Shown here: piece by piece, positions 7,874 through 56,606 of the stretch
Layout: every line of letters begins with the position of its first letter
How positions within the stretch are numbered: the first letter of the stretch is position 1
From: Alphaproteobacteria bacterium
GTDB taxonomy: Bacteria; Pseudomonadota; Alphaproteobacteria; MPNO01
DNA length: 64,000 nucleotides
Reading direction: 5' to 3'
Assembly: GCA_965248835.1 (NCBI GenBank)
Contig: CBDFLJ010000001.1
Coordinates: forward strand, 128,001 to 192,000
Position numbers and translations under genes: made by a program
The notes under the pieces: generated by a model
What the model was told of the DNA's origin: nothing
The model's database searches: none
What the model saw: the letters and a program-made list of their open reading frames with translations, nothing else

Positions 7874-7887
7874 TCTGAGCCGTCGGA

Positions 7888-7925
7888 CGGCGCCGATCCC
7901 GGACCCGGTTCCGGGATCGGCGCCG
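7888..7925. other. 16-bp perfect intergenic hairpin between tctC and tctB (probable mRNA-stabilising stem)
   Basis: CGGCGCCGATCCCGGA-N6-TCCGGGATCGGCGCCG, no U-tract. Confidence 0.6.
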
Positions 7926-7964
7926 GCGCATTCCCGCCAACGCTGAGCGCAGGAGACCGCCGCC

Positions 7965-8462
7965 ATGCGGCGTGCCGAGTTCGTCATGGCGGCGGTCATG
8001 GCGCTGTTCTCGCTCTATATCATGTGGAAAGCGACCGAGCTTCCGATCGGCTGGATCGAAGGCGCGGGCCCGGGCGGCGGCGCCTTCCCGTTCTGGCTGG
8101 CCGTCGGGATGCTGGTGTGCTGCGGCTGGATCATGCTGCGCTGGTTCCGCCGGCAGAGCGCGCCGGCGCGCTCCGCCGAGCCCTATATGGACGGCCGCGG
8201 GCTCAAGCTGTTCGCGGTCGGCGCCGGATCGCTGGTCGTCATGATCGGGCTGATCCATCTGGTCGGCGTCTATGTCGTGGTGCCGCTCTACCTGATCTTC
8301 TACATGCGCCTGCTCGGCCGGCACCGCTGGTCGGTGACCGTGCCGCTGGCGGTCGCGATGCCGGTTGCGACGTTCTTCTTTTTCGAGATCGCGCTCAAGA
8401 TCACCCTGCCCAAGGGCCTCACCGAGCCCGCGTTCTACCCGCTCTACGAGATGTTTTTCTGA
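7965..8462 (+). CDS. tctB: TctB small membrane subunit
   Basis: Several hydrophobic segments, GPGGGAFPFWL, LKITLPKG; lies between tctC and tctA. Confidence 0.9.
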   Translation: MRRAEFVMAAVMALFSLYIMWKATELPIGWIEGAGPGGGAFPFWLAVGMLVCCGWIMLRWFRRQSAPARSAEPYMDGRGLKLFAVGAGSLVVMIGLIHLVGVYVVVPLYLIFYMRLLGRHRWSVTVPLAVAMPVATFFFFEIALKITLPKGLTEPAFYPLYEMFF

Positions 8463-8474
8463 GGCGGCCGGCCG

Positions 8475-9992
8475 ATGGAGATCCTCAACCTCCTCCTCGA
8501 CGGGTTTGCCGTCGCCCTTCAGCCCCTCAATCTGGGGCTGATCGTCGCCGGCTGCATCGCCGGGCTGTTCATCGGCGCGATGCCCGGGCTGGGCTCGGTC
8601 AACGGCGTGGCGATCCTGCTGCCGATGACGTTCCTGGTGCCGCCGACCTCGGCGATGATCTTCCTGGGATCGCTCTATTACGGGGCGATGTATGGCGGGG
8701 CGATCTCCTCGATCATGCTGGGCATCCCCGGCGCCTCCACCGCGGTGGCGACCACGTTCGACGGCCGGCCGATGGCCCTTGCCGGGATGGCCGACAAGGC
8801 GCTGGTCGCCGCGGCGACCGCTTCGTTCACCGGCGGGACGATCTCGGTGATCCTGTTCACCTTGTTCGCACCGCCCTTGGCCGAAGTGGCGCTCGCCTTC
8901 GGCCCGCCGGAGGAGTTCGCGCTCTTGATGCTCGCGTTCGCCACCTTCATCGGGCTGGGCGGCGACGACATTCCCAAGACCTTCTTTTCGATCTTCGTCG
9001 GCCTGGTGCTGAGCGCCGTCGGGCTCGACGTGGTCAGCGGCCAGCCGCGGCTGATCTTTGGCGATATCACCGGCTTCTATCACGGCATCAACTTCCTGGT
9101 CCTGGCGATCGGGATCTACGGGATCGGCGAGATCCTGTGGACCGTCGAATCGACCAAGGGCGAGATGGTCGTCTCGCGCGTGGCGGTGAGCTTCCGCGGA
9201 ATCTTGCGCGCCCTGGCCGCCCTGCGCGGCAGCGTCCGCACCATGGTGATGGGCTCGCTGCTGGGCTATTTCGTCGGCATCCTGCCGGCGGCCGGCGCGA
9301 CGCCCGGCTCGCTGATGGCCTATGGCGTCGCCAAGACGATCTCCAAGGACCCGGAGTCCTTCGGCAAGGGCAATGTCGAGGGGGTCGTCGCACCCGAGGC
9401 GGCCAACAACGCCGCCAGCACCGGCTCGATGCTGCCCATGTTGACGCTCGGCATCCCCGGCTCGCCGACCACCGCGATCCTGTTGGGCGGCATGGTGATC
9501 TGGGGCCTCGAGCCCGGCCCGTTGCTGTTCGTCGAGCACAAGGAGTTCGTCTGGGGGCTGATCGCAAGCCTCTACGCCGCGAACCTGTTTGCCCTGCTGA
9601 TCAACATCGCCTTCATCCCGGCCTTCCTGATGGTGCTGAGGATGCCGTTTACGGTGCTGGCGCCGATCATCTTCATCCTGTGCGTCGTCGGCGGCTATGC
9701 GCCCACCCAGGATATGCACGACATCTGGCTGATGCTGATCTTCGGCGTCGTCGGCTACCTGATGCGCAAGCTCGACTACCCGCTGGCGCCGGTGGTGCTG
9801 GCGATCGTGCTGGGTCCGCTTGCCGAGGCCTCCTTGCGCCAGTCGCTGATCATGGCGCAGGGCTCGTTCGGCATCTTTTTCGACCGCCCGGTCTCTGCGA
9901 CCATCATGGTCGTAGCCATCGGCCTGTTCGTCTGGCCGCTGGTCGTCGTCGTCCGGGCCAGGGCGCGCGCGCGAGGGGGGCAGAAGAGATGA
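8475..9992 (+). CDS. tctA: TctA permease
   Basis: GAMPGLG, YYGAMYGG, PEAANNA, LTLGIPGS. Confidence 0.95.
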   Translation: MEILNLLLDGFAVALQPLNLGLIVAGCIAGLFIGAMPGLGSVNGVAILLPMTFLVPPTSAMIFLGSLYYGAMYGGAISSIMLGIPGASTAVATTFDGRPMALAGMADKALVAAATASFTGGTISVILFTLFAPPLAEVALAFGPPEEFALLMLAFATFIGLGGDDIPKTFFSIFVGLVLSAVGLDVVSGQPRLIFGDITGFYHGINFLVLAIGIYGIGEILWTVESTKGEMVVSRVAVSFRGILRALAALRGSVRTMVMGSLLGYFVGILPAAGATPGSLMAYGVAKTISKDPESFGKGNVEGVVAPEAANNAASTGSMLPMLTLGIPGSPTTAILLGGMVIWGLEPGPLLFVEHKEFVWGLIASLYAANLFALLINIAFIPAFLMVLRMPFTVLAPIIFILCVVGGYAPTQDMHDIWLMLIFGVVGYLMRKLDYPLAPVVLAIVLGPLAEASLRQSLIMAQGSFGIFFDRPVSATIMVVAIGLFVWPLVVVVRARARARGGQKR

Positions 9993-42985: not shown

Positions 42986-43117
42986 CTATTGGAAGCCGAG
43001 GCCGCTGCAGACCGCGAGCACGATGTTCTGGATCAGATAGACGTCCTTGACCAGCGGCAGCGACACCGCGCCGAGGAGCAGAAGGCCGCCGACCAGAATG
43101 TATTCGCTCTTGCCCAA
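42986..43117 (-). CDS. Putative 43-aa hydrophobic small protein (not in ORF track)
   Basis: TTG start: (M)GKSEYILVGGLLLLGAVSLPLVKDVYLIQNIVLAVCSGLGFQ*; strong G/C third-position bias; weak RBS. Confidence 0.5.
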   Translation of the reverse strand: MGKSEYILVGGLLLLGAVSLPLVKDVYLIQNIVLAVCSGLGFQ

Positions 43118-43237
43118 GACCCGACCCGGAAAGGTACGGCCGTTCGCGCCGGCCGGACAGCGCAATCAATCTGAGAGATGAATGTAGACCCTGCGCAATG
43201 CGAAGGCCAGCCTGCGAATCGGCTTGAAACCGGGCCT

Positions 43238-43265
43238 TTGAAATAGGATACTGACCGCTTAGTAT
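43238..43265 (+). promoter_or_regulatory. Putative promoter with overlapping TetR-type operator ATACTGACCGCTTAGTAT
   Basis: TTGAAA (-35-like) and TAGTAT (-10-like); imperfect palindrome at 43248-43265 upstream of the TetR gene. Confidence 0.55.
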
Positions 43266-43301
43266 GTAAATATACCCGTGCGCAGGGAAACCACGGCCAC
43301 C

Positions 43302-44012
43302 ATGGCGACGATCGCACCGCTGCAAGCCGAGCCCCGCCCGGCCGCACCCGCGGCAAGGCGCGGTCCGCGGACCAAGAAGGAACAGCGCCGGGTGTCGACC
43401 GAGCGGCTGCTGGCGGCGGCGCTCAGGCTGTTCATCACGCAGGGCTACCTCGCCACCTCGGTCGAGGAGATCGGCCGCGCCGCGGACCTGACCAAGGGCG
43501 CGGTCTATTTCTATTTCGGCGCCAAGGCGCGGCTGTTGCTGGCCTTGCTGGACCGGGCCGAGGCGCTGACGGTGGAGCCGACGATCGCCGCGGTCCGGCA
43601 ACGCGACGGCTCGGCGCGGGACAGGCTGGTCGCCTTCATGCACTCGCAGTCGAGCGTGGGCGCCGAGCACGGCGCGCTGATGATGCTGGCGATCCTGATG
43701 GCGACCGAGTTCCACGGCTCGGGCGATCCGATCGAGCACCGGCTGGACGGATTGATGGGCCGGCTCGCCGCGCTCCTGGAAGAGATCGTCGAGCAGGGAA
43801 GGCGCGAGGGGGTGCTGCGTGCGGACCTCGGGGCGCGCGAGACCGCGAGCATGCTGATGGCGGTCAATCAGGGATGTTTCGTCGAGTGGTACCGCCGCGG
43901 CCGCGACCTCGACGGTCCGGGCTTCGTGCGCGCCATGCGCACGATCGTGCTCGACGGGGTGGGTGCGGGCGGGCACGGCGCGTTAAGCGAATCGGAAGCG
44001 GGAGAAAGCTGA
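43302..44012 (+). CDS. TetR-family regulator heading the Paa-like operon (alternative GTG start 43278)
   Basis: ERLLAAALRLFITQGY.ATSVEEIGRAADLTKGAVYFYF. Confidence 0.92.
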   Translation: MATIAPLQAEPRPAAPAARRGPRTKKEQRRVSTERLLAAALRLFITQGYLATSVEEIGRAADLTKGAVYFYFGAKARLLLALLDRAEALTVEPTIAAVRQRDGSARDRLVAFMHSQSSVGAEHGALMMLAILMATEFHGSGDPIEHRLDGLMGRLAALLEEIVEQGRREGVLRADLGARETASMLMAVNQGCFVEWYRRGRDLDGPGFVRAMRTIVLDGVGAGGHGALSESEAGES

Positions 44013-44013
44013 C

Positions 44014-44970
44014 ATGGCAACGTCGATCAAGTCCGATCCGGCCGGAGACGCGCGCGAGCGCGCGCTGCAGGAGCGCATCAAGGCCGGCTTCGTGCTGGAG
44101 GATGAAGACGAGATGACGCCGCGCTATCGCGACGTGCTGGTCAACACGATCCACATCGCCGCCGATCTGGAGGTGGTGACGCTGCCGACCTATTCGCCGG
44201 CGATCAGGACTTCGCCGACGTTGGAGGACAAGATCGCCATCGCCGCAGCCTGCCAGGACGAGCTCGGCCACGCCCAGGTGATGTACCGGATCCTCGAGGA
44301 TTTCGGCTACGACACCCACGACTTCCTGTTCGAGCGCGACCCTGAGAAGTGGCGCACCTTCCAGATGCTGGAGTTCCCGCACGAGGACTATATCGAGTCC
44401 GTGGTCTCGATGTGCTACGGCGACCGTGCCGGCTACATCACCACGACCGATCTGGAGGAAAGCTGCTCTTATGCGCCGTTCGCCCGCTCGCTGCGCAAGG
44501 TGAACTTCGAGGAGACCTTCCACGTCGGTCACGGCGAGCGCTGGGTCCGGTTCTTTTTCAACTATACCGCCGAAACCCGCCGGCGGGTGCAGGAGGCGGT
44601 CGATTTCTACTTCCCGCTCTGCGCGTCCTGGTTCGGCATGCCCGACCATCTGAAGACCCGGACCGATCAGATCTCCTACAAGATCCGCGGCGCCTCCAAC
44701 GACGAGATGCGCCAGAAATGGATGTCCGAGATCGTGCCCTATTCGGAAAGCGTCGGCATCAAGGTGCCGGCCCATTTCGACGAGGAGACCGGCAAGTACG
44801 TGCTCGACTACGAGCCCCCGATCCATCTCGACGAGGAGACCCGGACCTGGCACTACGACCGGCAGATCACCTGGGAAGAGCAGCTCAAGGTCTGGAAGAC
44901 GGGCTCCAGGCACAAGGTCCCCTCGATCACCCGGGTGCAGCAGGAGGTCTGGGGCAAGGACCTCTGGTAA
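44014..44970 (+). CDS. paaA: PaaA-like ferritin-fold diiron monooxygenase catalytic subunit (divergent)
   Basis: GFVLEDEDEMTPRYR; ligand motifs ADLE, QDELGH, DRAG, EETFH; SCSYAPFARSL; SNDEMRQKW. Confidence 0.85.
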   Translation: MATSIKSDPAGDARERALQERIKAGFVLEDEDEMTPRYRDVLVNTIHIAADLEVVTLPTYSPAIRTSPTLEDKIAIAAACQDELGHAQVMYRILEDFGYDTHDFLFERDPEKWRTFQMLEFPHEDYIESVVSMCYGDRAGYITTTDLEESCSYAPFARSLRKVNFEETFHVGHGERWVRFFFNYTAETRRRVQEAVDFYFPLCASWFGMPDHLKTRTDQISYKIRGASNDEMRQKWMSEIVPYSESVGIKVPAHFDEETGKYVLDYEPPIHLDEETRTWHYDRQITWEEQLKVWKTGSRHKVPSITRVQQEVWGKDLW

Positions 44971-44975
44971 GGACC

Positions 44976-45293
44976 GTGACGGCGACCCGCGATCAGGTGA
45001 TCGACGCGCTGGAGCGCGTCCACGACCCCCATGTGCCGGTGAGCCTGCGCCGCATGGGCATGCTGCGCGATATCGAAGTCGGGCCGGGCGGCGTGGTCAG
45101 CATCGCCGTCTGCATCCCGTGCATGGCCTGCCCCGGGACGGCGATGATCCGCGCCGGCATCGAGGAGGCGGTCGGTGCGCTCGACGGGGTCAGCGAAGTC
45201 CGCGTGCTCGAAGGATGGCACCTGCCGTGGTCGCGCGAGATGATCGAGCCCGAGGTGCGTGAGCTGATGCGCGCCAACGGCATCCAAGTCTGA
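44976..45293 (+). CDS. paaD: PaaD/DUF59-like metal-cluster assembly protein (N-terminal domain only)
   Basis: ALERVHDPHVPVSL..MGMLRDI, CIPCMACP, PWSREMI. Confidence 0.8.
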   Translation: MTATRDQVIDALERVHDPHVPVSLRRMGMLRDIEVGPGGVVSIAVCIPCMACPGTAMIRAGIEEAVGALDGVSEVRVLEGWHLPWSREMIEPEVRELMRANGIQV

Positions 45294-45308
45294 ACGAGCG
45301 AGCAAACG

Positions 45309-45572
45309 ATGACGGCAAGGCACAAGAAGATCGACCGGCCGCGCGAGCGCGGCGGAGTCGCGCCGAAATACTACGAGGTGTTCGCGCGCAGGACGTCGGC
45401 GGACGCGCTGGCGCATGTCGGCTCGGTCGAGGCGCCCAACGACGACCTCGCCCAGATCCGCGCCTGGTACATCTACGATCAGCACCGCTGGAAGGAGATG
45501 TGCGTGGTGCCGCTGGAGGCGATCATCACGGTCACCGAGCACGGCCGGTCCACCAAGATAAAGATGAACTGA
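45309..45572 (+). CDS. paaB: PaaB-like subunit
   Basis: YEVFARR..HVGSVEAP..LA..RA..Y..MCVVP. Confidence 0.8.
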   Translation: MTARHKKIDRPRERGGVAPKYYEVFARRTSADALAHVGSVEAPNDDLAQIRAWYIYDQHRWKEMCVVPLEAIITVTEHGRSTKIKMN

Positions 45573-45573
45573 G

Positions 45574-46356
45574 ATGACCTACAAAGTCGCGGAGCTCGAA
45601 ACCAGCCTCGATCCCGGGCTCGAGACGGACCTGCTGGCCATCGCCGACACCAAGCTGGTGCTGGGCAACTGGTATGCCGAATGCGTCATGAATGGCCGCT
45701 CGCTGCCCGATTTCGCCGGCATCCTCGGCATGTGCACGGTCAATTACGGCCACACCAGGGCGATCTACCAGCACCTCGACCGGCACGGCCACGACTACAA
45801 GCGACTCGAGCGCGGCCGCGGGGCGGACGAGATCCACGCGATGAACCTGCTGGACGCCGCGCCGACCGGCTGGGAGGATTTCATCCTCACCGTCTGGCTC
45901 GCCGAGCTTGCGACCTGGCAGCTCATCTCGGGCTATCTCGGCCATTCCGACCGGGCGGTCGCGGGCATCGCGCGGAAAATCGGCGAAGAGGCCTATTTCC
46001 ATCTCAAATACGCCCATGGCTGGATGCATATCATCGGCGAGGACGCCGATGAGCGCGCACGGTTCGCAGACGCGTTCGTGGCGCGCTACAAGCTGGCGCT
46101 GCAATGGCTCGGACCGGACTCCGCAACCGATCCGGTCTTCGATGCCGGCGAGCGCGACATGCCGCTTGCAGAAATCCGGGCGGCGTTCGTCGCCGAGGCC
46201 GGCAAGGCGGCCGAGCATCTGGGCGGCCCCGCGCTGGCGGTACCCGACCGGGCGGACCTGCCCGCCGATTGGCGCGACGACGCCCGCAGGCTCGGCCCGC
46301 TGCCGGCCGGGCTGTTCGAGGTCGTGCGCTTCAAGGACCCGGAGCTCGCCCATTGA
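45574..46356 (+). CDS. paaC: PaaC-like structural subunit
   Basis: LAIADTKLVLGNW, GHTRAIY, IARKIGEEAYFH..A..W. Confidence 0.8.
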   Translation: MTYKVAELETSLDPGLETDLLAIADTKLVLGNWYAECVMNGRSLPDFAGILGMCTVNYGHTRAIYQHLDRHGHDYKRLERGRGADEIHAMNLLDAAPTGWEDFILTVWLAELATWQLISGYLGHSDRAVAGIARKIGEEAYFHLKYAHGWMHIIGEDADERARFADAFVARYKLALQWLGPDSATDPVFDAGERDMPLAEIRAAFVAEAGKAAEHLGGPALAVPDRADLPADWRDDARRLGPLPAGLFEVVRFKDPELAH

Positions 46357-46577
46357 GCGCCGCGCGAGCCAACGCCGAGCACCGAGCCGTTCATTCCGGC
46401 GATCCCGACTTTGCGGGCGTGTGCTGCCCCGACTGCGAGGCAACCGATCTCGAAGTCGTTTCGCTGTTCGGCGGCGCGGCATCGGAGGTCCTGTTCCGCT
46501 GCAACCGCTGCACGAGCTGCTTCAACTGGATCAAATGGCAGGGCGCCCTGCCGCCCAGCGCCCACGGCCGCGATTAA
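46353..46577 (+). CDS. Stand-alone PaaD-type zinc-ribbon protein
   Basis: CPDCEAT....SLFGGAASEVLFRCNRCTSCFNWIKW parallels the PaaD C-terminal CPxC..FG....CxxC..F..K; TTGA overlap with paaC. Confidence 0.75.
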   Translation: MSAARANAEHRAVHSGDPDFAGVCCPDCEATDLEVVSLFGGAASEVLFRCNRCTSCFNWIKWQGALPPSAHGRD

Positions 46578-46606
46578 AATTCCTCAACCCGGGACCGCGG
46601 GCCGCC

Positions 46607-47737
46607 TCACCCCAGGGCGTCGGCGACGATGTCCCGAAAATCCGCCTCGTCGGGGCGCAGCGGTGCCGTGGCGTTGAAATGGGCCTTCGCGGCGTAGGCC
46701 GCGAGCGCGTCGAGATCGTTGCGGGGATAGCCCAGCGCACGCACGGAGTTCGACAGGCCGAGCCGCATGTTCAGACCGGTGATGCCGTCGGCGACGTCGG
46801 TTCCGGTCTCGAGGCCCATCGCATCGGCGACGGCATCGAGACGCTCACCAAGCGCGGCGTCGCCCTTGGCGCGGTAATAGCGCATCACCGCGGGCCCCGA
46901 GGCGGTGATCAGCGCGCCGTGGTGGAGCGGGCCGTCGGCGAAGGTGTGCCCCAGAGCGTGCACCGGGCCGAGCCCCATATAGATCGCCATGCCGCCTTCG
47001 AGCGCGGCCATCATCATGTGCCAGCGCGCCTCACGGTCGCCGCCGTCCGCATACGCGCGCTCGATATAGGCCGCCACGCGCCGAATGCCGTCGAGGGCGA
47101 CGGCCTCGAGCGGCGGGTTGGAGACGTTGGACAGAAAGCCCTCGATGCAGTGCCCCAGCGCATCCATCCCGGTCGCGGCGGTGAGCCCGGGCGGCAGGCT
47201 CAGGGTCAGATCCGGATCGCAGACCGCGACATCGGGTTTGACATGCGGGCTGCGGATGCCGAGCTGATGGGCGCCCGGGCTCGGGTGGATGCCGCCGCCG
47301 AAGGTGATCTCAGCGCCGGTGCCCGAAGTGGTCGGGACGCTCACATAGGGCGCGACGCCGGCGGTGATCTTCGACGGGTCCTCGAGATAGGCGATCACCG
47401 GCTCGGGATGCGTAGCGACCACGCGCAGAGCCTTGCCCGAATCGAGCACCGAGCCGCCGCCCAGCCCGACGATCCCGTCGCAGCCCCGTTCGCGGTAGAC
47501 CGCCAGCGCGCCTTCGATTCCGGCGATCGTCGGATTCGGCGGTATGCCGTCGAACACCGCCGCTTCGATACCGGCCGGCAGCGCCGCGCGTACCCTGTCG
47601 GCGATGCCGTGTGCGGCCAGCCCCTTGTCGGTGATGATCAGAGGTCGCGCGACGCCGCGGGCGGCGAGCACGCCGCCAAGATCCGCGATCGCACCGAACG
47701 CGAAATGCACCGGCGGCAGGCTGGGCAGAACCGTCAC
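46607..47737 (-). CDS. Iron-containing alcohol dehydrogenase
   Basis: GGGSVLDSGK, PTTSGTGAE, TGMDALGHCIE, HALGH, HHG. Confidence 0.92.
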   Translation of the reverse strand: MTVLPSLPPVHFAFGAIADLGGVLAARGVARPLIITDKGLAAHGIADRVRAALPAGIEAAVFDGIPPNPTIAGIEGALAVYRERGCDGIVGLGGGSVLDSGKALRVVATHPEPVIAYLEDPSKITAGVAPYVSVPTTSGTGAEITFGGGIHPSPGAHQLGIRSPHVKPDVAVCDPDLTLSLPPGLTAATGMDALGHCIEGFLSNVSNPPLEAVALDGIRRVAAYIERAYADGGDREARWHMMMAALEGGMAIYMGLGPVHALGHTFADGPLHHGALITASGPAVMRYYRAKGDAALGERLDAVADAMGLETGTDVADGITGLNMRLGLSNSVRALGYPRNDLDALAAYAAKAHFNATAPLRPDEADFRDIVADALG

Positions 47738-47879
47738 GTGTCTCGCTCCCCTGAAGTGTTCGAAACGGCGCATTGCCCCGGCGATGCCACCGCGTGGACC
47801 CCGGGATTGCCCATCGCTTGCGCCGTGTGTTCGGCGGCGATGGTCACCGTAAGGCGGCCGGCGAGGCCCGGCTGCAGCA

Positions 47880-48908
47880 TCAGCCGACCCGCCGGTACCG
47901 GGTCTTGCCGTCGGCCTCGTCGGTGATCTTTTCCAGCGCGCCCTCGGTCACCAGGTAGTTCAGGTGCGACAGCGCCTCGCCCATCGCGAAGCCGATCTGG
48001 TGGCTGTCCAGCTCGCGGTGAAACAGCACCGGGATCAGCTCGATCGCCGTGCGGGGCTCGGAGCAGAAGTCCAGCGCGGCATCGAGCCGCTCCCGGTGGT
48101 GCTCGGTGAGATAGTCGAGCCGGTCGTGCAGGCCGTAGAACGGCCGGTTATGCGAGGGCAGCACGAACGTGTCGGCGGCCAGCGGGCGCATCGGCTCGAA
48201 GCTCTCCAGGAACTGACGCAGCGGATCGCCGTTGGGCTCGGAGAACCAGACGCTGATGTTGGTGGTGATCCTGGGCAGCACCTGATCGCCGGAGATCAGC
48301 ACCGCGATCTCCGGGCAGTAGAGCGCGGCGTGCTCGGGCGAATGGCCGCCCCCGATGATCACCTGCCATTTGCGGCCGCCGATATCGATCTCCATGCCGT
48401 TCCAGATCCGCTTGACCCGGCGCGGCACCGGTGCGGTCCAGCGTCCGAAATTCTTCACCCCGGCGCGATAGGCATCCACGCTCGGCCGGTCGAGCCCGTT
48501 GGCGATGAAAAACGCCATCCAGTCGTCGACGTCGTGCGTGACATCCTGGGTCCAGGCGAGATGCGATTGCAGCCATTCGCCGTAGGTCATCCAGAGCTCG
48601 GTGCCGAATTTGTCGGCGAGCCAGCCGGCGAGCCCCAGATGGTCGGGGTGGAAGTGGGTGACGATCGCGCGCTTGAGCGGCTTGCCGCCCATCGGCCCCT
48701 GCATGACACCGACCCAGTGCGACCTGACATCATCGCCGTTCCAGCCGGTGTCGACCACCGTCCAGCCGTCGCCGTCTTCCAACAGGTAGAGATTGATGTG
48801 ATCGAGCGCGAACGGCAGCGGCATCTTCAGCCACCAGATCCCGGGCGCGACCTGCAAGGTCTGGCCGTATTCCAGGTCTTCGTGGGGATAGCGCGGCTGG
48901 TTGGTCAT
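47880..48908 (-). CDS. MBL-fold metallo-hydrolase
   Basis: PLPFALDHIN, THFHPDHLG, GHSPEH, SGDQVLP, LPSH. Confidence 0.92.
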   Translation of the reverse strand: MTNQPRYPHEDLEYGQTLQVAPGIWWLKMPLPFALDHINLYLLEDGDGWTVVDTGWNGDDVRSHWVGVMQGPMGGKPLKRAIVTHFHPDHLGLAGWLADKFGTELWMTYGEWLQSHLAWTQDVTHDVDDWMAFFIANGLDRPSVDAYRAGVKNFGRWTAPVPRRVKRIWNGMEIDIGGRKWQVIIGGGHSPEHAALYCPEIAVLISGDQVLPRITTNISVWFSEPNGDPLRQFLESFEPMRPLAADTFVLPSHNRPFYGLHDRLDYLTEHHRERLDAALDFCSEPRTAIELIPVLFHRELDSHQIGFAMGEALSHLNYLVTEGALEKITDEADGKTRYRRVG

Positions 48909-49114
48909 CACTGTCACTCCGGGGCGCGTTGCGGAGCCGAAATCCGGGCTGCCAGCGCCCTTGATCGTCATCGCGTCGGTCCCGGGGAGGCGCGCGGACC
49001 CTATCAGCGTGACCCGGTTGCAGCAACCGCCCGGACCGGTGTCTTGTGGTCGCCGACCGGCATCCCCTAGACTGTCTCCGCCGGCCCCGATCGGGGACCC
49101 AGGGAGGCCATCGC

Positions 49115-49507
49115 ATGCGCCAGGAGATCCATATCCCGAGCCTCGGTCCGGCGATCAGCCACTATACCGAGGCGGTCCGGTTCGGCGATCTGCTCTATGT
49201 CTCGGGCCTGGTGTCCTGCGACAGCGAGGGCAAGGTGGTCGCCCCCAACGATGCGGTCGGCCAGACACGGCAGATCTTCAAGATCATGAAGGTGATCCTG
49301 GACGAGGTCGGCGCCGGGTTCGAGGACGTGCTCAAGCTGAACCTGTTCCTGACCGATATCAACGACCGGCCGCGGATCAATCCGATCCGCCAGGAGGTCT
49401 TCGGCGATGCCAGGCCCGCCAGCACCCTGGTGCAGGTCGCCGCCCTGGTCTATCCCGAGCTCTGCATCGAGATCGAGTCCGTCGTCGGCATTCCCTCCAA
49501 AAGCTGA
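49115..49507 (+). CDS. RidA/YjgF-family protein
   Basis: SHYTEAV..GDLLYVSG, PASTLVQVAAL..PELCIEIE. Confidence 0.9.
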   Translation: MRQEIHIPSLGPAISHYTEAVRFGDLLYVSGLVSCDSEGKVVAPNDAVGQTRQIFKIMKVILDEVGAGFEDVLKLNLFLTDINDRPRINPIRQEVFGDARPASTLVQVAALVYPELCIEIESVVGIPSKS

Positions 49508-49520
49508 GAAAGGTGAGCTT

Positions 49521-50729
49521 ATGGATACGATCGAGCCCCGCCGCGAGACGCACACGCTCGAGGAGCTCGTGCGCAACTCCGGCACTCGCGACATCCTGGC
49601 CCATGCGGTCCGCCAGGCGCAAGCGCGCAACTTCGACGATTACCTGATCATCGATGTCGATGCGCACCACTTCGAGACCCAGTCCTGGCCGGAGATCGTC
49701 CAATACATCCCCGACCCGGTGGTCCGCGACATCGCGTCGAACTTCCGCACCGCCCAAGGCGATATCCAGCCCGGCATCATCCAATCGAGCGGCTGGCCGC
49801 TGCACCAGAACGTCGGCGGGCGCATCCCGCACGACCCGGGCATGCTGGAGCCGGGCGAGCCCGGCGAGCACCGCGACGTCAGCCTGATCCGCCGGGCGAT
49901 CGAGAGCTTCGGGATCGACTACCAGGTCACGTTTCCCACCCCGATGCTGGCGCTCGGGCTGCATCCCGAGCTCGATGTCGAGATCGCGCTGGCGCGCGGC
50001 TACAACCACTGGGTCACCGAACAGCTGCTCTCGGCCGATGAGCGCATCAAGACGCTCCTGTACCTGCCGTTCAACGACCCTCCGGCGTGCGAGGAGATGG
50101 TCGAGCGCTTCGGTGAGACCAAGGGCGTGGTCGGGTTCATGGTCACCTCGGTGCGCTACCGGCCGGTTCACCACAACGCCTACATGCGGCTCTACCGGAT
50201 GATCGAGGAGCGCGGGCTCGCGCTCGGCTTCCATGCCGGGCCTAACTGGGGCGGCGACGGCTATGTCCGCCAGCTCAACCGGTTCCTGACCATGCATGCG
50301 ATCTCGTTCTCGCTGTGCAACATGGTTCATCTGGCCAACTGGGTGATGAACGGGCTGTGCGAGCGCTTCCCCGACCTGCCGGTGGTCTGGATCGAAAGCG
50401 GCATCGCCTGGCTCGCCTTCATGATGCCCAGGCTGGACAACGAATATCTGATGCGGTCCTCCGAAGCGCCGGCGCTGAAACGGCTGCCGAGCGCGTATAT
50501 CGGCGAGATGTACTACACCTCCCAGCCGCTGGAGCGCACCAACATGAAGCTGCTCGAGGCGACGTTCGACGCGTTCAACGCGCCGACCCAGCTCATGTAC
50601 GCCTCGGACTGGCCGCACTGGGATTTCGATGCGCCGAGCGTGATCTACGACCTGCCCTTCCTCGACGAGCAGGCCAAGCGCAACATTCTCGGGCTCAACG
50701 CCAAGCGGGTCTTCGGGATCGATACCTGA
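49521..50729 (+). CDS. Amidohydrolase-2 fold protein; candidate dinuclear oxygenase (PtmU3/AibH-like)
   Basis: IIDVDAHH, FPTPML, ARGYNHW, GFHAG, WIESGIAW, ASDWPHWDFD. Confidence 0.8.
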   Translation: MDTIEPRRETHTLEELVRNSGTRDILAHAVRQAQARNFDDYLIIDVDAHHFETQSWPEIVQYIPDPVVRDIASNFRTAQGDIQPGIIQSSGWPLHQNVGGRIPHDPGMLEPGEPGEHRDVSLIRRAIESFGIDYQVTFPTPMLALGLHPELDVEIALARGYNHWVTEQLLSADERIKTLLYLPFNDPPACEEMVERFGETKGVVGFMVTSVRYRPVHHNAYMRLYRMIEERGLALGFHAGPNWGGDGYVRQLNRFLTMHAISFSLCNMVHLANWVMNGLCERFPDLPVVWIESGIAWLAFMMPRLDNEYLMRSSEAPALKRLPSAYIGEMYYTSQPLERTNMKLLEATFDAFNAPTQLMYASDWPHWDFDAPSVIYDLPFLDEQAKRNILGLNAKRVFGIDT

Positions 50730-50730
50730 A

Positions 50731-51951
50731 ATGACCGATGCCCGTGCGCGGGCCCGGGATTTCGACCTGGGCCGGCTCACGGCCGCGTTCCTGGAGGACC
50801 CCTACCCGACCTACCACGCGCTTCGCGCACACGACCCGGTGCACCGGATGGCGGACGGTTCGGTCTTCCTGACCCGCTATGCCGACATCGTGGATGTCTA
50901 CCACGACGCCGAGCGGTTCTCGTCCGACAAGCGGATCGACTTCAAGCCGACCATGGGCGATACCGCGCTCTACGAGCACCACACGACCAGCCTGGTGTTC
51001 AACGATGCGCCCTACCACACCCGCGTGCGCAAGCGGCTTTCGCCGGCGTTTACCCCGCGCGCGCTGCATGCGCTGCGCTCCCGGGTCGAGGCCCTGGTCG
51101 ATGCAATGCTCGACCGGATCGAGGACGCGGGTTCGTTCGACCTGATCGAGGACCTCGCCTCCGCCCTTCCCGTCGAGTTGATCGGCGACATGCTGGGAGT
51201 GCCCAGGGAGGAGCGGGGGCCGCTGCGCGGCTGGTCGGTCGCCATCCTGAGCGGGCTCGAGCCGGTGCTGAGCGACGACCAGCGCGCGCGCGGGGCGGCC
51301 GCGGTCGAGGATTTCAAGGACTACCTGCGGGACCTGATCGCGCGGCGCACCAAAGGCTCCCGGTCCGGGGACGAGGCCGAGGTGCTGTCCAAGCTCATCG
51401 GCCCGGACGAGGACGGCGCGGCGTTGTCCGAACTCGAGCTGCTGCACAACTGCATATTTCTGCTGAACGCCGGGCACGAGACGACGACCAACCTGATCGG
51501 CAACGGCATCGAGGCGCTGATGCGCTTCCCCGACGAATACCGGCGGCTGCGTGCGGACCCGGGCCTGATCGTGTCCGCGGTCGAGGAGTTACTGCGCTTC
51601 GAAAGCTCCAACCAGATCGGCAACCGTCGGCTCGCGGTCGCGGCCACGCTGGGAGGCGTGGCGTTGGAGGCCGGCACCTACATCCATATCGGCATCGGCG
51701 CCGCCAACCGCGATCCGGCCGCGTTCCCCGATCCCGACCGGCTCGACATCGGCCGCGAGCCCAACCGACACCTCGCCTTCGGCGCGGGCGTGCATGCCTG
51801 TGCCGGGCTTTCGCTGGCACGGATGGAGGGCCGGGTCGCTATCGGCAAGCTGGTCGCCCGCTTCCCGGGCCTGCGCCTGGATGGGACGCCGGTACGCGGT
51901 GGCCGCGCGCGATTCCGCGGCTTCACCGCCTTGCCGGTTGCGATACGATAG
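50731..51951 (+). CDS. Cytochrome P450
   Basis: AGHETT (I helix), EELLR (ExxR), HLAFGAGVHACAG (heme Cys). Confidence 0.95.
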   Translation: MTDARARARDFDLGRLTAAFLEDPYPTYHALRAHDPVHRMADGSVFLTRYADIVDVYHDAERFSSDKRIDFKPTMGDTALYEHHTTSLVFNDAPYHTRVRKRLSPAFTPRALHALRSRVEALVDAMLDRIEDAGSFDLIEDLASALPVELIGDMLGVPREERGPLRGWSVAILSGLEPVLSDDQRARGAAAVEDFKDYLRDLIARRTKGSRSGDEAEVLSKLIGPDEDGAALSELELLHNCIFLLNAGHETTTNLIGNGIEALMRFPDEYRRLRADPGLIVSAVEELLRFESSNQIGNRRLAVAATLGGVALEAGTYIHIGIGAANRDPAAFPDPDRLDIGREPNRHLAFGAGVHACAGLSLARMEGRVAIGKLVARFPGLRLDGTPVRGGRARFRGFTALPVAIR

Positions 51952-51976
51952 GCCGCAGATCAACGGGAGACCGCAC

Positions 51977-54286
51977 ATGCCGGACGGCAGCCGCAGGAGA
52001 TTGGGAACCAGCCATTGGGGCGCGTTTACCGCCGAGGTGAGCGAGGGCCGGCTGGTCGGCGTCACCCCGTTCGCGCATGACCCCCACCCGGCGCCGCTGC
52101 TGCAGACCTTGCCGAGCGCGGTCCACGCCGCGTGCCGGATCGAACAGCCGATGGTCCGCAAGGGCTGGCTCGACGCCGGGCCGGGCGGCAGCGGCGCGGC
52201 GCGCGGCACCGATCCGTTCGTCGCCGTCGGCTGGGACGAGGCGCTGGGACTGGTCGCCGATGAGTTGACCCGCGTGAAGGAGTCTTATGGCAACGAGGCG
52301 ATCTATGCCAGTTCCGGCTGGGGCAGCGCCGGCAGCTTCCACCATGCCCGCAGCCAGCTTTCGCGCTTTCTCAACCTGTTCGGCGGCTTCGTCGATCAGG
52401 TGACCAACTACAGCTTCGGCGCGGCGATGGTGATCGTGCCGCGCATCGTCGGCTCACTGTCCCCGGTCGTCGGCCCGGTCAATTCCTGGCCGACCATCGT
52501 CGAGAACACCGAGCTCATGGTGCTGTTCGGCGGCATGGCGCCAAAGAACAGCCAGGTCAACCAGAACGGGGTCGGCGTCCACGACCTTGCGGACTGGCAC
52601 GCCAAGGCGCATGCGGCCGGGACGCGCTATGTCTGCATCAGCCCGATGCGCGATGACACCGCCACCGCTCTGGACGCCGAGTGGATCCCGATCCGGCCCA
52701 ACACCGATGCCGCTCTGATGCTCGGACTGGCCCATACGCTGCTCGCCGAGGACCTGCACGACACGGCGTTTCTCGAACGCTGCTGCACCGGCTTCGAGCG
52801 GTTCGAGGCCTATCTGAGCGGGGCGGCCGATGGCCAGCCGAAGGATGCCGACTGGGCGGCCGCGATCACCGAGGTGCCGGCCGAGACCATCCGCGGCCTG
52901 GCCCGGCGCATGGCCGCTGCGCGCACCCTGATCGGGGTGGCCTGGTCGATCCAGCGTGCCGATCATGGCGAGCAGCCCTACTGGATGACCGTCACCCTGG
53001 CCGCGATGCTGGGCCAGATCGGCTTGCCCGGCGGCGGGTTCGGCTTCGGCTACGGTGCGATGCACGGCATCGGCGGCGCCCGCCACCCGGTCGCGCCGCC
53101 CAGCCTGCCCAAGGGTGCGAACGCGGTGGAAAGCTGGATCCCGGTCGCGCGGCATGCCGACATGCTGCTCGATCCCGGCGGGTCTTACAGCTTCAACGGC
53201 GCGCTGCGGACCTACCCCGACATCCGGCTGGTCTACTGGTGCGGCGGCAACCCGTTCCACAAGCAACAGGACCTCAACCGGCTGCTGCGCGGCTGGGCCA
53301 AGCCCGAGACCATCATCATCCACGAGCCATGGTGGACGCCCGCTGCGCGGCGCGCCGACATCGTGCTGCCCTGCACCACGACGCTCGAGCGCAACGACAT
53401 CGCGGCATCGGACTTCGACAGGTTCCTGTTCGCCAGCCAGCAGGCGATCGCGCCGCTGGGCGAGGCGCGCAACGAATACGAGATCTATTCCGACCTTGCC
53501 GGACGGCTGGGCTTCCGCGAGGCGTTCACCGAGGGCCGGAGCGAGATGGACTGGCTGCGCCACCTCTACGACATCTTTCGACAGCGCGCCTCGGGCGTCG
53601 GCGTCGAGATGCCGAGCTTCGAGGGGTTCTGGGAGACAGGCTTCGTCGAACTGCCGGCGCCGGAAGACCCGCCGATCCCGTTTGCCGGTTTCCGCGACGA
53701 CCCGGACGCGGCGCCGCTCAAGACCCCTTCGGGAAAAATCGAGATCTATTCCGAGACCATCGCCGGGTTCGGCTACGACGACTGCCCCGGCCACCCGGTC
53801 TGGCTCGAACCGGCCGAGTGGCTGGGCGGCGCGGCCGCCGAACGCCACCGGCTGCACATGATCTCCAACCAGCCGCGCGCGCGGCTGCACAGCCAGCTCG
53901 ATTGCGGCGATGTCAGCCGCGCGGCCAAGGTCGCCGGACGCGAGGCGCTGCGGATCAACCCCGACGATGCCGCCGCGCGCTGCATCGCCGACGGCGATGT
54001 CGTGCGCGTGTTCAACGACCGCGGCCAATGTCTGGCGGGCGCGGTCGTCACCGATGCGCTGCGCCCCGGAGTCATCGAGCTCGCCACCGGTGCCTGGTAC
54101 GACCCGCTGGACGCGTCCGAGCCCGGCAGCCTGGACAAGCACGGCAACCCCAACGTCTTGACGCTGGACAAGCCGACATCGCAGCTCTCCCAATGCAGCG
54201 CCGCTCAGACCGCGCTCGTCGAGGTCGAGCGTTACGACGGCACCGTGCCGGAGATCACCGCCTACGACCCGCCGGCGATCCTCTGA
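51977..54286 (+). CDS. Cytoplasmic Mo-bisPGD S/N-oxide reductase (BisC/TorA/DMSO reductase family)
   Basis: SHWGAF, PMVRKGWL, GWGSAG, NYSFGAA (Ser ligand), RLHSQLD, HGNPNVLTLD; no Tat signal visible. Confidence 0.9.
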   Translation: MPDGSRRRLGTSHWGAFTAEVSEGRLVGVTPFAHDPHPAPLLQTLPSAVHAACRIEQPMVRKGWLDAGPGGSGAARGTDPFVAVGWDEALGLVADELTRVKESYGNEAIYASSGWGSAGSFHHARSQLSRFLNLFGGFVDQVTNYSFGAAMVIVPRIVGSLSPVVGPVNSWPTIVENTELMVLFGGMAPKNSQVNQNGVGVHDLADWHAKAHAAGTRYVCISPMRDDTATALDAEWIPIRPNTDAALMLGLAHTLLAEDLHDTAFLERCCTGFERFEAYLSGAADGQPKDADWAAAITEVPAETIRGLARRMAAARTLIGVAWSIQRADHGEQPYWMTVTLAAMLGQIGLPGGGFGFGYGAMHGIGGARHPVAPPSLPKGANAVESWIPVARHADMLLDPGGSYSFNGALRTYPDIRLVYWCGGNPFHKQQDLNRLLRGWAKPETIIIHEPWWTPAARRADIVLPCTTTLERNDIAASDFDRFLFASQQAIAPLGEARNEYEIYSDLAGRLGFREAFTEGRSEMDWLRHLYDIFRQRASGVGVEMPSFEGFWETGFVELPAPEDPPIPFAGFRDDPDAAPLKTPSGKIEIYSETIAGFGYDDCPGHPVWLEPAEWLGGAAAERHRLHMISNQPRARLHSQLDCGDVSRAAKVAGREALRINPDDAAARCIADGDVVRVFNDRGQCLAGAVVTDALRPGVIELATGAWYDPLDASEPGSLDKHGNPNVLTLDKPTSQLSQCSAAQTALVEVERYDGTVPEITAYDPPAIL

Positions 54287-54946: not shown

Positions 54947-55525
54947 TCAGATCCGGGTCGAAAGCCAGATCGCCAGCCGGGAGCCCGCCTTGATGCCTCC
55001 GGTCAGGAGTTCGTAGGCCGGGGCGTGACGGGCCTCGTGCTCCAGTGCCGCCTCGCGGTGGGCGATCTCGTCGGCGCGGAAGGACTCGATGGTCGCGCGC
55101 AGTTCGGACTCGTCCTCGCCGAGCTGCGCGGCCTGTTCGGCGTAGTGCTCCTCGATCACGTCCTCGACGGCGAGCGTGCAGGCCATGGCCGCACGCTCGC
55201 CCATCAACCCGGTCACCGCGCCCAGCGCGTAGCCGGCCAGGTGCCACAGCGGCATCAGCGCCGTCGGGCGCACGCCGCGCTCGCTGACAAGCCGGTCGAA
55301 GGTCGCCAGATGCTCGGCCTCCTTGGCGGCCATCTCGGCCACCGCATCGGCCGCCGGGCCGTCGCCCAGGACCGCGCGCTGGCCGGCATAGATCCGGACC
55401 GCGCCGTACTCGCCGGCATGGTCGACCCGGATCATCCGCGCCAGGATTTCCTGCCGCGACGGATCGCCGGGCAGCCGGTCTTCGGCCGTCTCCTTCGGAC
55501 CCGCCCGGTCGCGATCGGTCATCAA
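54947..55525 (-). CDS. coq7: Demethoxyubiquinone hydroxylase
   Basis: IRVDHAGEYGAVRIYAGQ, EAEH, AVEDVIEEHY, DEIAH. Confidence 0.93.
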   Translation of the reverse strand: MMTDRDRAGPKETAEDRLPGDPSRQEILARMIRVDHAGEYGAVRIYAGQRAVLGDGPAADAVAEMAAKEAEHLATFDRLVSERGVRPTALMPLWHLAGYALGAVTGLMGERAAMACTLAVEDVIEEHYAEQAAQLGEDESELRATIESFRADEIAHREAALEHEARHAPAYELLTGGIKAGSRLAIWLSTRI

Positions 55526-56028
55526 GCCGTCCGCCCCCTTCTCGATGCCGCTATCGCGCTGGCGACGGCGAGCGCGGCCGAAACGATGAAATTGTAGCCG
55601 GCGAGAGAGATCCCGAACATCGACCAGGGGATCTCATCGCAGCGCACGACCGGGGCGGCCTCCAGGAGCCGCTTCAGCTCCTCGATCGACCGGGCATCGA
55701 TGCCGACGCCCGAGCACGTCGCGGGGCCGGCGAACCAGCCCTGCTCGACGCCGGCGTGGTAGAAGGCGATCCCCGCGCCTACCGCGAAGGCGGCCGCGCA
55801 GAGGCCGGTGAGCCGCCGCCGCGCCGACCGGCCGCGCAGCGCCACCAGCCCGGCCAGCGACAAGGCGATTGCGACCGCATAGGGCCAACGCTGGTAGAGG
55901 CAGAGCTCGCACGGCGCGAGCCCGCCCCAGTACTGCGCGGCAAGCGCGGTGCCGAGGACGGCGATGCTGGCCGCCAGGATGGCGGCCGGCGCGTTTGCGG
56001 CATCAAGCAACGGCGTTCGGGCTCTCAC
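55522..56028 (-). CDS. dsbB: Disulfide bond formation protein B
   Basis: LAPCELCLYQRWPY, YHAGVEQ..GPATC, VRCD..W. Confidence 0.9.
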   Translation of the reverse strand: MRARTPLLDAANAPAAILAASIAVLGTALAAQYWGGLAPCELCLYQRWPYAVAIALSLAGLVALRGRSARRRLTGLCAAAFAVGAGIAFYHAGVEQGWFAGPATCSGVGIDARSIEELKRLLEAAPVVRCDEIPWSMFGISLAGYNFIVSAALAVASAIAASRRGRTA

Positions 56029-56606
56029 ATCCCATATTTGGCAACCGCGAAGCCGCCGAGCAAGAGCGCGCAGAAGGCGATCGCCACCATGCCGAGGCGC
56101 TTTTCGATGAACCTGCGGATCGGCGGGCCGATCCAATAGAGCAGCCCCGCGACCAGGAAGAAGCGCAAGCCGCGGGCGGCGATCGAGGCGAAGGTGAAGA
56201 CCACCGGGTCGAGCCCGGTGGTCCCGCTCAGGATGGTGATCACCTTGTAGGGGAAGGGGGTGAGGCCGGCGATGAACACCGCCCAGGCGCCCCATTCGTT
56301 ATAGCTGGCGCGGAACTGGGCGAACTTCGCGGCATGGCCGTAGAATTCCAGCACCGGCCGGCCCGCGGTCTCGAACAGGAAGGAGCCGATGGCATAGCCG
56401 AGGAGCCCGCCCAGCACCGAGGCGATGGTGCAGATGGCCGCGAACCGCCAGGCGCGGTCGCGCGCGGCCAGTACCATCGGGATCAGGAGCACGTCCGGCG
56501 GGACCGGAAAGACCGAGCTCTCGATGAAGGCGACCGCCGCCAGCACCCAGACCGCATCGCGGCGCGCGGACAGGTCGATGACCCGGTCGTAAAGGCGCTT
56601 CAGCAC
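56025..56606 (-). CDS. YqaA/DedA-family membrane protein
   Basis: AFIESSVFPVPPD, AGLTPFPYKV. Confidence 0.9.
   Translation of the reverse strand: MLKRLYDRVIDLSARRDAVWVLAAVAFIESSVFPVPPDVLLIPMVLAARDRAWRFAAICTIASVLGGLLGYAIGSFLFETAGRPVLEFYGHAAKFAQFRASYNEWGAWAVFIAGLTPFPYKVITILSGTTGLDPVVFTFASIAARGLRFFLVAGLLYWIGPPIRRFIEKRLGMVAIAFCALLLGGFAVAKYGM

Follow-up and report, generated by a model that had tools for sequence, protein, structure and literature searches.

The 64,000-nucleotide stretch of alphaproteobacterial DNA analysed here (contig CBDFLJ010000001.1, positions 128,001 to 192,000; henceforth, the window) contains a run of six genes, tetR-A-DUF59-B-C-Zn, related to the genes of the phenylacetyl-CoA epoxidase PaaABC(D)E. 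The comparative analysis of these genes leads us to propose, with a probability of roughly 0.7, that they encode a TetR-gated diiron oxygenase of the Paa type, probably acting on a CoA-activated substrate other than phenylacetyl-CoA and drawing on an unlinked electron donor. The product of the operon is predicted not to be a phenylacetyl-CoA epoxidase, because its subunits score below the cut-offs of the corresponding Paa models, its A subunit falls in a separate clade, the lysine bridge of PaaA is missing and no paa genes are found in the genome at cut-off.

The catalytic subunit and the PaaA clade

The iron ligands of Escherichia coli PaaA are E42, E72, H75, D126, E155 and H158 (excerpts of PMC4498308), and alignment with this protein revealed that all six are kept in the A subunit, as E53, E83, H86, D137, E167 and H170. 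The alignment bears out the ADLE, QDELGH, DRAG and EETFH contexts that an earlier inspection of the letters alone, the sequence-only reading, had assigned to them, and the resemblance that it saw between DRAG and the DRDG of BoxB is matched by DRDG in the genome's own BoxB. Besides A, 10 of the remaining 11 rows in its orthologue group (nine rows labelled 'ortholog', P0082 and the sister sequence P0121) have the complete ligand set; the exception, P0121, presents Gln at the fifth ligand position.

On the PaaA equivalog model TIGR02156, A scored 128.5 bits against a cut-off of 280, and canonical PaaA representatives scored 283-581 bits. Both A (179.8 bits) and C (67.2 bits) pass the Pfam gathering score of PF05138 (28.5 bits). 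The closest solved structures to A were the PaaA proteins of E. coli (3pvr_A) and Klebsiella, at E about 6e-23 to 7e-23, with an identity to PaaA of about 28 % as read off the alignment and not printed by the tool. A phmmer search with A against 1.84 billion cluster representatives returned 792 matches at E <= 0.001; among full-length matches, one representative exceeded 50 % identity and the next stood at 41 %.

Sixty-two representatives were labelled with NCBIfam, and a 65-row tree was obtained with a quick IQ-TREE search. In this tree A and its orthologues form a 25-row clade with a Shimodaira-Hasegawa-like approximate likelihood ratio test (SH-aLRT) value of 94, and a separate 31-row clade (SH-aLRT 94) holds all 11 canonical PaaA rows together with eight sub-threshold ones. 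Constraining the orthologues to group with the PaaA rows cost 69 log-likelihood units and yielded a p-value of 0.0003 in the approximately unbiased (AU) test. The sequence-only reading had named the nesting of A within characterised PaaA clades as the outcome that would overturn it; both the tree and the AU test place A outside them.

Residues involved in electron and substrate handling were also compared. A 'lysine bridge' formed by Lys68 and Glu49 is the proposed route for electrons from PaaE, and Phe108 of PaaA positions the phenylacetyl group (excerpts of PMC4498308). These three residues are present in 11 of 11 canonical PaaA rows, and their counterparts in A are Ala79, Tyr60 and Leu119, respectively. 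The Lys68/Glu49 pair is missing from A, from all nine other 'ortholog' rows and from all 18 rows labelled 'divA'.

Paa and Box genes elsewhere in the genome

The search of the genome for a canonical paa cluster and paaE that the sequence-only reading had called for identified neither at cut-off. The best matches to the equivalog models across the whole genome remained well under their thresholds for PaaE (67.6 versus 420.8 bits), PaaK (244.7 versus 646.3 bits), PaaZ (120.1 versus 562.8 bits) and PaaG (193.2 versus 345.15 bits); PaaX returned no match, and no PaaA of the canonical kind turned up at cut-off. The lack of paaE, G, Z, K and X reported for the window hence extends, at cut-off, to the genome as a whole. 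A canonical PaaA was detected in one of 61 related genomes. A true BoxB is encoded on contig C2 (151453-152886, locus L006; TIGR03225, 849 bits), with acyl-CoA ligase-like genes flanking it. Given this gene and the sub-threshold scores of the paa genes, the genome is predicted to possess a benzoyl-CoA epoxidase route and no paa route.

The genome encodes other proteins of the PF05138 family. A second Paa-like system of different build lies on contig C1 at about 1723400-1728300 (loci L008 and L002) and comprises a MetE-like protein, a [2Fe-2S]-FAD-NAD reductase, a short-chain dehydrogenase/reductase, a single PaaA-like gene (PF05138, 82.4 bits; TIGR02156, 89.7 bits) and a MarR regulator; most genomes from the same family likewise give PaaA-model matches of about 73-89 bits. 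A third PF05138 paralogue (258 amino acids, 48.9 bits) is found on contig C2 at about 2091890-2101900 (L004), back-to-back with the PaaK-like ligase that gave the best PaaK score and near an enoyl-CoA hydratase, an acyl-CoA synthetase and a DctP gene. The notion that these PF05138 genes supply the missing parts of the operon was rejected, each of them residing in a cluster of its own. Three segments (C1:3977-4885, C1:2280491-2281399 and C2:2601279-2602187) presented identical scores in two family searches and are repeated segments. The estimated contamination of the assembly is 9.5 %.

Organisation and putative regulation of the operon

Open reading frame (ORF) listing, the raw sequence and Pfam searches agree on six co-directional genes on the forward strand, spanning 43278-46577 (Table 1). 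The gaps between them are 1 nucleotide (tetR-A), 5 nucleotides (A-DUF59), 15 nucleotides (DUF59-B) and 1 nucleotide (B-C), and the TTG start of the Zn-ribbon gene overlaps the stop codon of C. Within 43000-46800, two sigma-70-like sites were identified, which overlap each other (43224-43252 and 43238-43265), and no terminator-like site was found inside the operon. Since promoter-like sites are confined to 43224-43265 and no internal terminator-like site was detected, the six genes look like a single transcription unit. The stop codon of tetR precedes the start of A by one nucleotide, so tetR is probably co-transcribed with A and autoregulated. Translation of tetR may begin at GTG 43278, the first available start, with ATG 43302 being likelier.

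Table 1. Features of the operon and of the genes next to it, in window positions.
Feature	Position	Strand	Evidence
Promoter-like region and TetR operator	43224..43265	+	sigma-70-like site scan, conserved motif
tetR	43278/43302..44012	+	TetR_N 55.9 bits (cut-off 24)
A, PaaA-type catalytic alpha subunit, 318 amino acids	44014..44970	+	PF05138 179.8 bits
Stand-alone DUF59 protein, 105 amino acids from GTG 44976	44976..45293	+	PF01883 60.6 bits
B, small PaaB-like subunit, 87 amino acids	45309..45572	+	PF06243 26.8 bits (cut-off 27)
C, PaaC-like structural subunit, 260 amino acids	45574..46356	+	PF05138 67.2 bits
Stand-alone four-Cys Zn ribbon, 74 amino acids from TTG 46353	46353..46577	+	PF23451 38.9 bits (cut-off 27)
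Fe-dependent alcohol dehydrogenase	46607..47773	-	Fe-ADH 140.9 bits; 4-hydroxybutyrate dehydrogenase model 358 (cut-off 500)
MBL-fold (metallo-beta-lactamase) hydrolase, LACTB2-type C-terminal domain	47880..48971	-	PF00753 82.7 bits, PF21221 72.7 bits

The putative operator is the palindrome ATACTGACCGCTTAGTAT at 43248-43265, the half-sites of which coincide with two candidate -10 hexamers. A relaxed version of this motif, ATACT-N8-[AG]GTAT, has a single occurrence across the 64 kb of the window. In related loci it was identified upstream of tetR in 27 of 28 cases and nowhere else in their 318,255 bases, and the strict form ATACTG-N6-CAGTAT is present upstream of tetR in 18 of the 28; the operator of the window carries one arm mismatch. 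The tetR gene itself lies immediately 5' of A in 28 of the 29 related loci with room for it. The product of tetR thus combines a TetR_N domain scoring above its cut-off with a conserved inverted repeat at its own promoter. Taken as a comparative signal, the operator is a real phylogenetic footprint, to which TetR is predicted to bind. The tight gene run behind a TetR with a palindromic operator, first noted by eye, is hence confirmed by ORFs, Pfam domains, gene spacing and motif conservation.

A PaaD counterpart divided between two genes

The DUF59 protein aligns with positions 1-88 of the 146-position PaaD model TIGR02159 (46 bits) and the Zn-ribbon protein with positions 100-144 of the same model (28.9 bits), both under its cut-off of 108 bits. 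In 15 canonical PaaD genes drawn from 151 alphaproteobacterial genomes, both parts reside in one ORF in all 15 cases, and the motif is TPTY[ST]GCP, with a single Cys. These comparisons corroborate the earlier claims that PaaD is split into a DUF59 gene and a separate Zn-ribbon gene, between which B and C lie, and that CIPCMACP in the DUF59 protein takes the place of the canonical motif.

The most likely start of the DUF59 gene is GTG 44976, which has AAGGA just upstream, and not the stop codon of A. Numbered from this start, its cysteines are C46 (nucleotides 45111-45113), C49 (45120-45122) and C52 (45129-45131), in a C-x2-C-x2-C-P arrangement. In the window and 29 related loci, the last two are invariant (30 of 30) and the first is conserved in 28. 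The three-Cys motif proposed from the sequence is therefore present in the window but falls short of full conservation, its first Cys being Arg in two of the 30 sequences. The Zn ribbon presents conserved CPDC and CNRC motifs in an alignment of 27 orthologues, preceded by a conserved H-S/T-G-D-P-D-F stretch.

The DUF59 protein also resembles SufT and related DUF59 factors, which are tied to Fe-S maturation (excerpts of PMC4982691 and PMC9045647): it scores 56.5 bits on the SufT equivalog model and 60.6 bits on PF01883, and keeps the Cys-Pro of the family. It differs from them in scoring below the SufT cut-off (143.4 bits), in being encoded inside an oxygenase operon and in having two extra Cys upstream of the family Cys.

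A fusion of A and DUF59 also exists (P0091, 422 amino acids), as one sequence from a 2-kb contig; a lost stop codon being possible, it was set aside as evidence of A-DUF59 binding. A predicted complex of A and DUF59, modelled with our own alignments and without controls, scored 0.00 in two runs and speaks neither for nor against binding.

The B and C subunits

The B protein scored 25.5 bits on the PaaB model TIGR02157 (cut-off 85.45). The two top PDB matches of a profile built from 14 orthologues were both PaaB, 4iit_B (E 0.024) and 3egr_A (E 0.22), and mean column identity of B among orthologues is 79 %. B scored higher (35.4 bits, cut-off 57) on TIGR04031, described as an 'Htur_1727 family rSAM-partnered candidate RiPP' model; this haloarchaeal family may itself be related to PaaB.

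PaaC is usually described as a non-catalytic subunit. C scored 27.2 bits on the PaaC model TIGR02158 (cut-off 133.35), and in the tree it clusters with the PaaC rows (SH-aLRT 99), its own branch being very long (2.56). The ligand positions of C read K27, N57, H60, E111, a register-shifted EEAYFH and H143; this set is degenerate, at least three of the six positions being lost or shifted, as expected for a structural subunit. Six sequences (P0152, P0182, P0198, P0230, P0241 and P0257) pass the PaaC cut-off and keep the six ligand-type residues E, E, H, D, E and H, in a sample that is biased by the choice of rows for their similarity to A.

Conservation of the cassette in orthologous loci and in a sister clade

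Orthologous loci with an A protein at 66-95 % identity were identified in species-representative genomes (31 loci), the hosts being alphaproteobacterial or unclassified metagenome-assembled genomes (MAGs) save for one labelled Rhizobacter. Among cultured carriers, homologues are named for Azospirillum and Allopusillimonas. The A-DUF59-B-C-Zn cassette is complete in 26 of the 31, always in the same order; the remaining five are four cut contigs and one A-B-C paralogue. This paralogue (L038) is devoid of DUF59, Zn and TetR genes and is followed by four tandem genes for binding proteins of tripartite ATP-independent periplasmic (TRAP) transporters; its MAG also has a full cassette (L035). In L023, the cassette, invariant elsewhere, is interrupted between A and DUF59 by an opposite-strand gene for a 904-amino-acid SNF2-family helicase (6940-9651, - strand).

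A metagenome scan with a profile of the next clade yielded 80 further loci, in which A is 36-43 % identical to that of the window. In loci with room for the gene in question, A is followed by DUF59 in 65 of 66, by B in 60 of 61 and by a C-like gene in 50 of 50; the Zn ribbon was detected in 22 of 42, at the sensitivity of tblastn. About one in six of these loci (10 of 56) carries a second DUF59 gene upstream of A. The sister clade hence shares with the window the same five genes and order, the DRAG and QDELGH contexts and the missing lysine bridge, seen in 13 'divA' rows inside A's 25-row clade. It differs in the greater divergence of A, in a DUF59 motif of the form TFTATACP[CA], without CxxCxxC, and in its gene neighbourhood, where no TetR, hydratase or nitroreductase was found in 12 long loci. 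The protein-atlas clusters nearest to A are auto-named PaaI or 'phenylacetic acid catabolic' and stem mostly from Gemmatimonadota and Actinomycetota.

The conservation of this order in both the orthologues and the sister clade indicates that A-D'-B-C-Zn with a split PaaD (D' being the DUF59 gene) is, as far as gene order can tell, an ancestral fixed arrangement that marks out a sister lineage of the Paa oxygenases, rather than the outcome of a local reshuffling. Of the earlier description of the operon as rearranged, the difference from paaABCDE thus stands and the local rearrangement does not.

The same holds in part for the description of the operon as having no downstream genes, which is true of the window, whereas most orthologues carry partner genes, pointing to a loss in this genus. 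Among the 24 orthologous loci with enough sequence, a gene for a nitroreductase-family flavoprotein follows the Zn ribbon in 16 and an enoyl-CoA hydratase gene lies downstream on the same strand in 18 (87-98 % identical among most); both are present in 14 loci and neither in four. Like the window, L012, L019 and L033 are without both partners. Facing the operon in relatives is a convergent unit encoding an MBL hydrolase, an FlK-type hot-dog thioesterase and a TRAP binding protein (DctP), and an acyl-CoA ligase is sometimes encoded upstream. In a scan that covered 43 of 61 listed ORFs, a LigAB gene was identified after the Zn ribbon of L012 (A 90 % identical), and L033 presented an AMP-ligase right after Zn and a MaoC dehydratase upstream. 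PDB searches with the TRAP binding protein of L013 returned unannotated structural-genomics relatives and no clue to its substrate. These neighbours resemble, by analogy, the logic of the paa and box pathways, with a ligase, an epoxidase, a crotonase-type ring opener and a rescue thioesterase. None of the nitroreductase, hydratase, thioesterase and binding-protein genes is present at the locus in the window or in L011, its closest relative.

The ratio of nonsynonymous to synonymous substitution rates (dN/dS) ranged from 0.06 to 0.38 across all six genes in four pairwise comparisons, with A at 0.06-0.12, tetR at 0.22-0.38, and values of 0.08-0.26 against the equally reduced L011. These ratios indicate that all six genes are under purifying selection.

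Proposed mechanism and alternative explanations

The mechanism set out here is inferred, from the assembly of a complex and the choice of a CoA ester as substrate to the mode of oxygenation, the functions of the DUF59 and Zn proteins and the source of electrons. It would begin with TetR bound to the palindrome that overlaps the -10 region and released from it by a ligand, probably the substrate or its CoA ester. By homology with PaaABC, catalysis at the diiron site would fall to A, C would be a structural partner with degenerate ligands and B would be the small bridging subunit, the three together forming a hydroxylase. PaaA, B, C and E suffice in vitro and PaaD is needed in vivo, possibly for maturation (excerpts of PMC4498308 and PMC9493321); the DUF59 protein and the Cys4 ribbon would most likely assist in maturation or in the loading of metal, the role put forward for PaaD of the canonical system. 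Activation of O2 would lead to the epoxidation or hydroxylation of an aryl- or acyl-CoA thioester other than phenylacetyl-CoA. The product, in related alphaproteobacteria, would be handed on to the co-transcribed enoyl-CoA hydratase/isomerase, with the hot-dog thioesterase, the MBL hydrolase and the TRAP transporter acting alongside; the genus of the window would have lost the hydratase, thioesterase and transporter partners and kept the oxygenase core. Electrons would come from an unlinked donor, given that no PaaE-type reductase is found in the operon or, at cut-off, in the genome.

A CoA-ester substrate is proposed mainly because of the paa- and box-like neighbour pattern in orthologous loci. 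The sequence-only reading had already suggested a CoA ester other than phenylacetyl-CoA, a suggestion that fits the hydratase, thioesterase, ligase, TRAP and LigAB genes next to the orthologues and that can be advanced for this subclade only. Its suggestion of a different electron route likewise fits the lack of PaaE, the missing lysine bridge and the nitroreductase-family gene of 16 of 24 relatives.

Several observations weigh against this interpretation. The tree on which the placement of A depends came from a quick search, and the group submitted to the AU test was named after inspection of that tree. The assignment of B to PaaB is statistically weak (E 0.024). No homologue of the nitroreductase or of FlK was found anywhere in the genome (tblastn, E 1e-10), and with the CoA partners missing here the CoA-ester argument rests on the relatives. 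In the 12 long sister-clade loci, moreover, the cassette is placed among unrelated genes (ribonucleotide reductase, FeoB, aconitase, ribose-5-phosphate isomerase, GGDEF), and no reductase or CoA-metabolism gene was found among the 58 of 81 listed ORFs that were scanned. This housekeeping context, free of CoA genes, confines the proposed catabolic CoA-ester role to the subclade of the window, and suggests that catabolism is not a necessary function of the cassette itself. Partners of the FNR, ferredoxin or Rieske type were not detected in the scanned loci of either clade.

The gene context of the sister clade favours the strongest competing explanation, namely that the cassette is a self-contained diiron module without a catabolic function, modifying a cofactor or a non-CoA metabolite or handling iron or oxidative stress, to which the CoA genes of the Alphaproteobacteria were added secondarily. 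Beyond the context of the sister-clade loci and the lack of a dedicated reductase in either clade, this explanation draws on the link of DUF59 proteins to Fe-S maturation (PMC4982691 and PMC9045647, excerpts) and on the window and L011, where the core persists by itself under purifying selection. The two characterised enzymes of this type, PaaA and BoxB, nevertheless act on CoA esters (excerpts of PMC4498308), and the same-strand hydratase of 18 of 24 orthologous loci is highly conserved among most of them. TetR control with a conserved operator is, furthermore, typical of inducible catabolic or efflux genes and also counts against a non-catabolic module, which we consider possible but unlikely. 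We view with still more reserve the idea that, beyond any part in maturation, the split PaaD admits electrons to a class of Paa-type oxygenases that have no reductase. The C-x2-C-x2-C-P of DUF59 would then hold an Fe-S cluster and the Cys4 ribbon would be rubredoxin-like, the two replacing the [2Fe-2S] domain of PaaE and the lysine-bridge path; electrons would reach them from the nitroreductase-type flavoprotein in most relatives and from a general reductase of the cell here.

Two further explanations appear highly improbable. The operon could encode an ordinary phenylacetyl-CoA 1,2-epoxidase with drifted and shuffled genes, its PaaE and lower pathway being encoded elsewhere: public sources name close relatives PaaA, PaaC or PaaI, the closest solved structures are those of PaaA from E. 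coli and Klebsiella, and all four protein types of PaaABCD are present. Yet every subunit scores far under its equivalog cut-off, A falls outside the canonical clade and its union with it is rejected by the AU test, the lysine bridge is missing and Phe108 replaced, no PaaE, K, G, Z or X reaches cut-off in the genome, and a gene order fixed across two deep clades argues against a recent shuffle. Hardly any more credible is a decaying remnant heading for pseudogenisation after the loss of its reductase, hydratase, thioesterase and transporter, a scenario suggested by the absence from the locus of four partner genes of most relatives, two of them without a homologue in the genome, and by the unrelated alcohol dehydrogenase found in their place. 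The six ORFs are nonetheless intact, with low dN/dS against L011, the operator is retained with its single arm mismatch, and L012, L019 and L033 also do without both partners.

Genes surrounding the operon

The MBL-fold hydrolase gene is the sole remnant in the window of the convergent unit of the relatives; it was identified in 13 of the 31 loci at >=45 % identity, that is, at least 45 %, its link to the oxygenase is one of synteny, and its PDB relatives are unannotated structural-genomics entries only. The Fe-dependent alcohol dehydrogenase gene occupies the place of the thioesterase and TRAP binding-protein genes of the relatives. No homologue of it was found in the 31 related loci, and it is probably a lineage-specific neighbour and not part of the system. 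Upstream of the operon lies an unrelated MoxR/DUF58/Bat-like operon, a position that is kept in several related loci. GC content drops to 0.648 at 44001-46000, against 0.70 in both adjoining 2-kb bins. Beyond the MBL gene (49118-54286 and 54947-56295), the forward strand encodes RidA, Amidohydro_2, a cytochrome P450 and a molybdopterin oxidoreductase, and the reverse strand COQ7, another diiron hydroxylase, and DsbB.

Relation to known systems and implications

The operon shares with PaaABC(D)E (E. coli, Pseudomonas sp. Y2 and Klebsiella; PDB 3PW1 and 4IIT) a ferritin-like diiron alpha subunit with E/ExxH/D/ExxH ligands, a homologous non-catalytic partner, a small PaaB-type subunit and an accessory function made of DUF59 and a Cys4 ribbon. 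It differs in its order (A-D'-B-C-Zn versus A-B-C-D-E), in its split PaaD with CxxCxxCP in the DUF59 part, in its TetR regulator in place of PaaX or PaaR, and in lacking PaaE, PaaG, PaaZ, PaaK and PaaX. BoxAB, the benzoyl-CoA 2,3-epoxidase, is likewise a diiron CoA-ester epoxidase of the same superfamily with Arg after the Asp ligand (DRAG here, DRDG in BoxB), and its product passes to a crotonase-family ring-cleaving enzyme (excerpts of PMC4498308), as a hydratase follows the cassette in relatives. BoxB, in contrast, is a monomer of about 475 amino acids without a C or B partner (same excerpts), A gives no match to TIGR03225 at E <= 0.01, and the locus encodes no BoxA-type reductase. Since the excerpts of PMC4498308 recognise two kinds of characterised CoA-ester ring epoxidases, PaaABCE and BoxAB, the operon represents, judging from its genes and their arrangement, a third lineage beside them, deep, widespread and consistently organised.

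No characterised member of this lineage was found, nor any literature on a Paa-like oxygenase built in this way, on a divided PaaD or on a nitroreductase as partner, in a search outside which most subscription journals fell and which is hence no proof of absence. A 2026 pathway survey puts PaaA and PaaC forward as markers for phenylacetate potential (PMC13186573, in part), and its abstract and one section make no mention of the A-DUF59-B-C-Zn lineage. Databases label this lineage PaaA, PaaC or PaaI, even though the genome of the window and 60 of 61 related genomes yielded no canonical PaaA, and calls of 'phenylacetate degradation' based on PaaA and PaaC markers would miscount it. The operon also makes testable which acid is used by abundant aquatic alphaproteobacteria and how a diiron centre is reduced without a dedicated reductase. 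The same applies to the question of what PaaD does, as its two halves are here separate proteins that can be studied singly.

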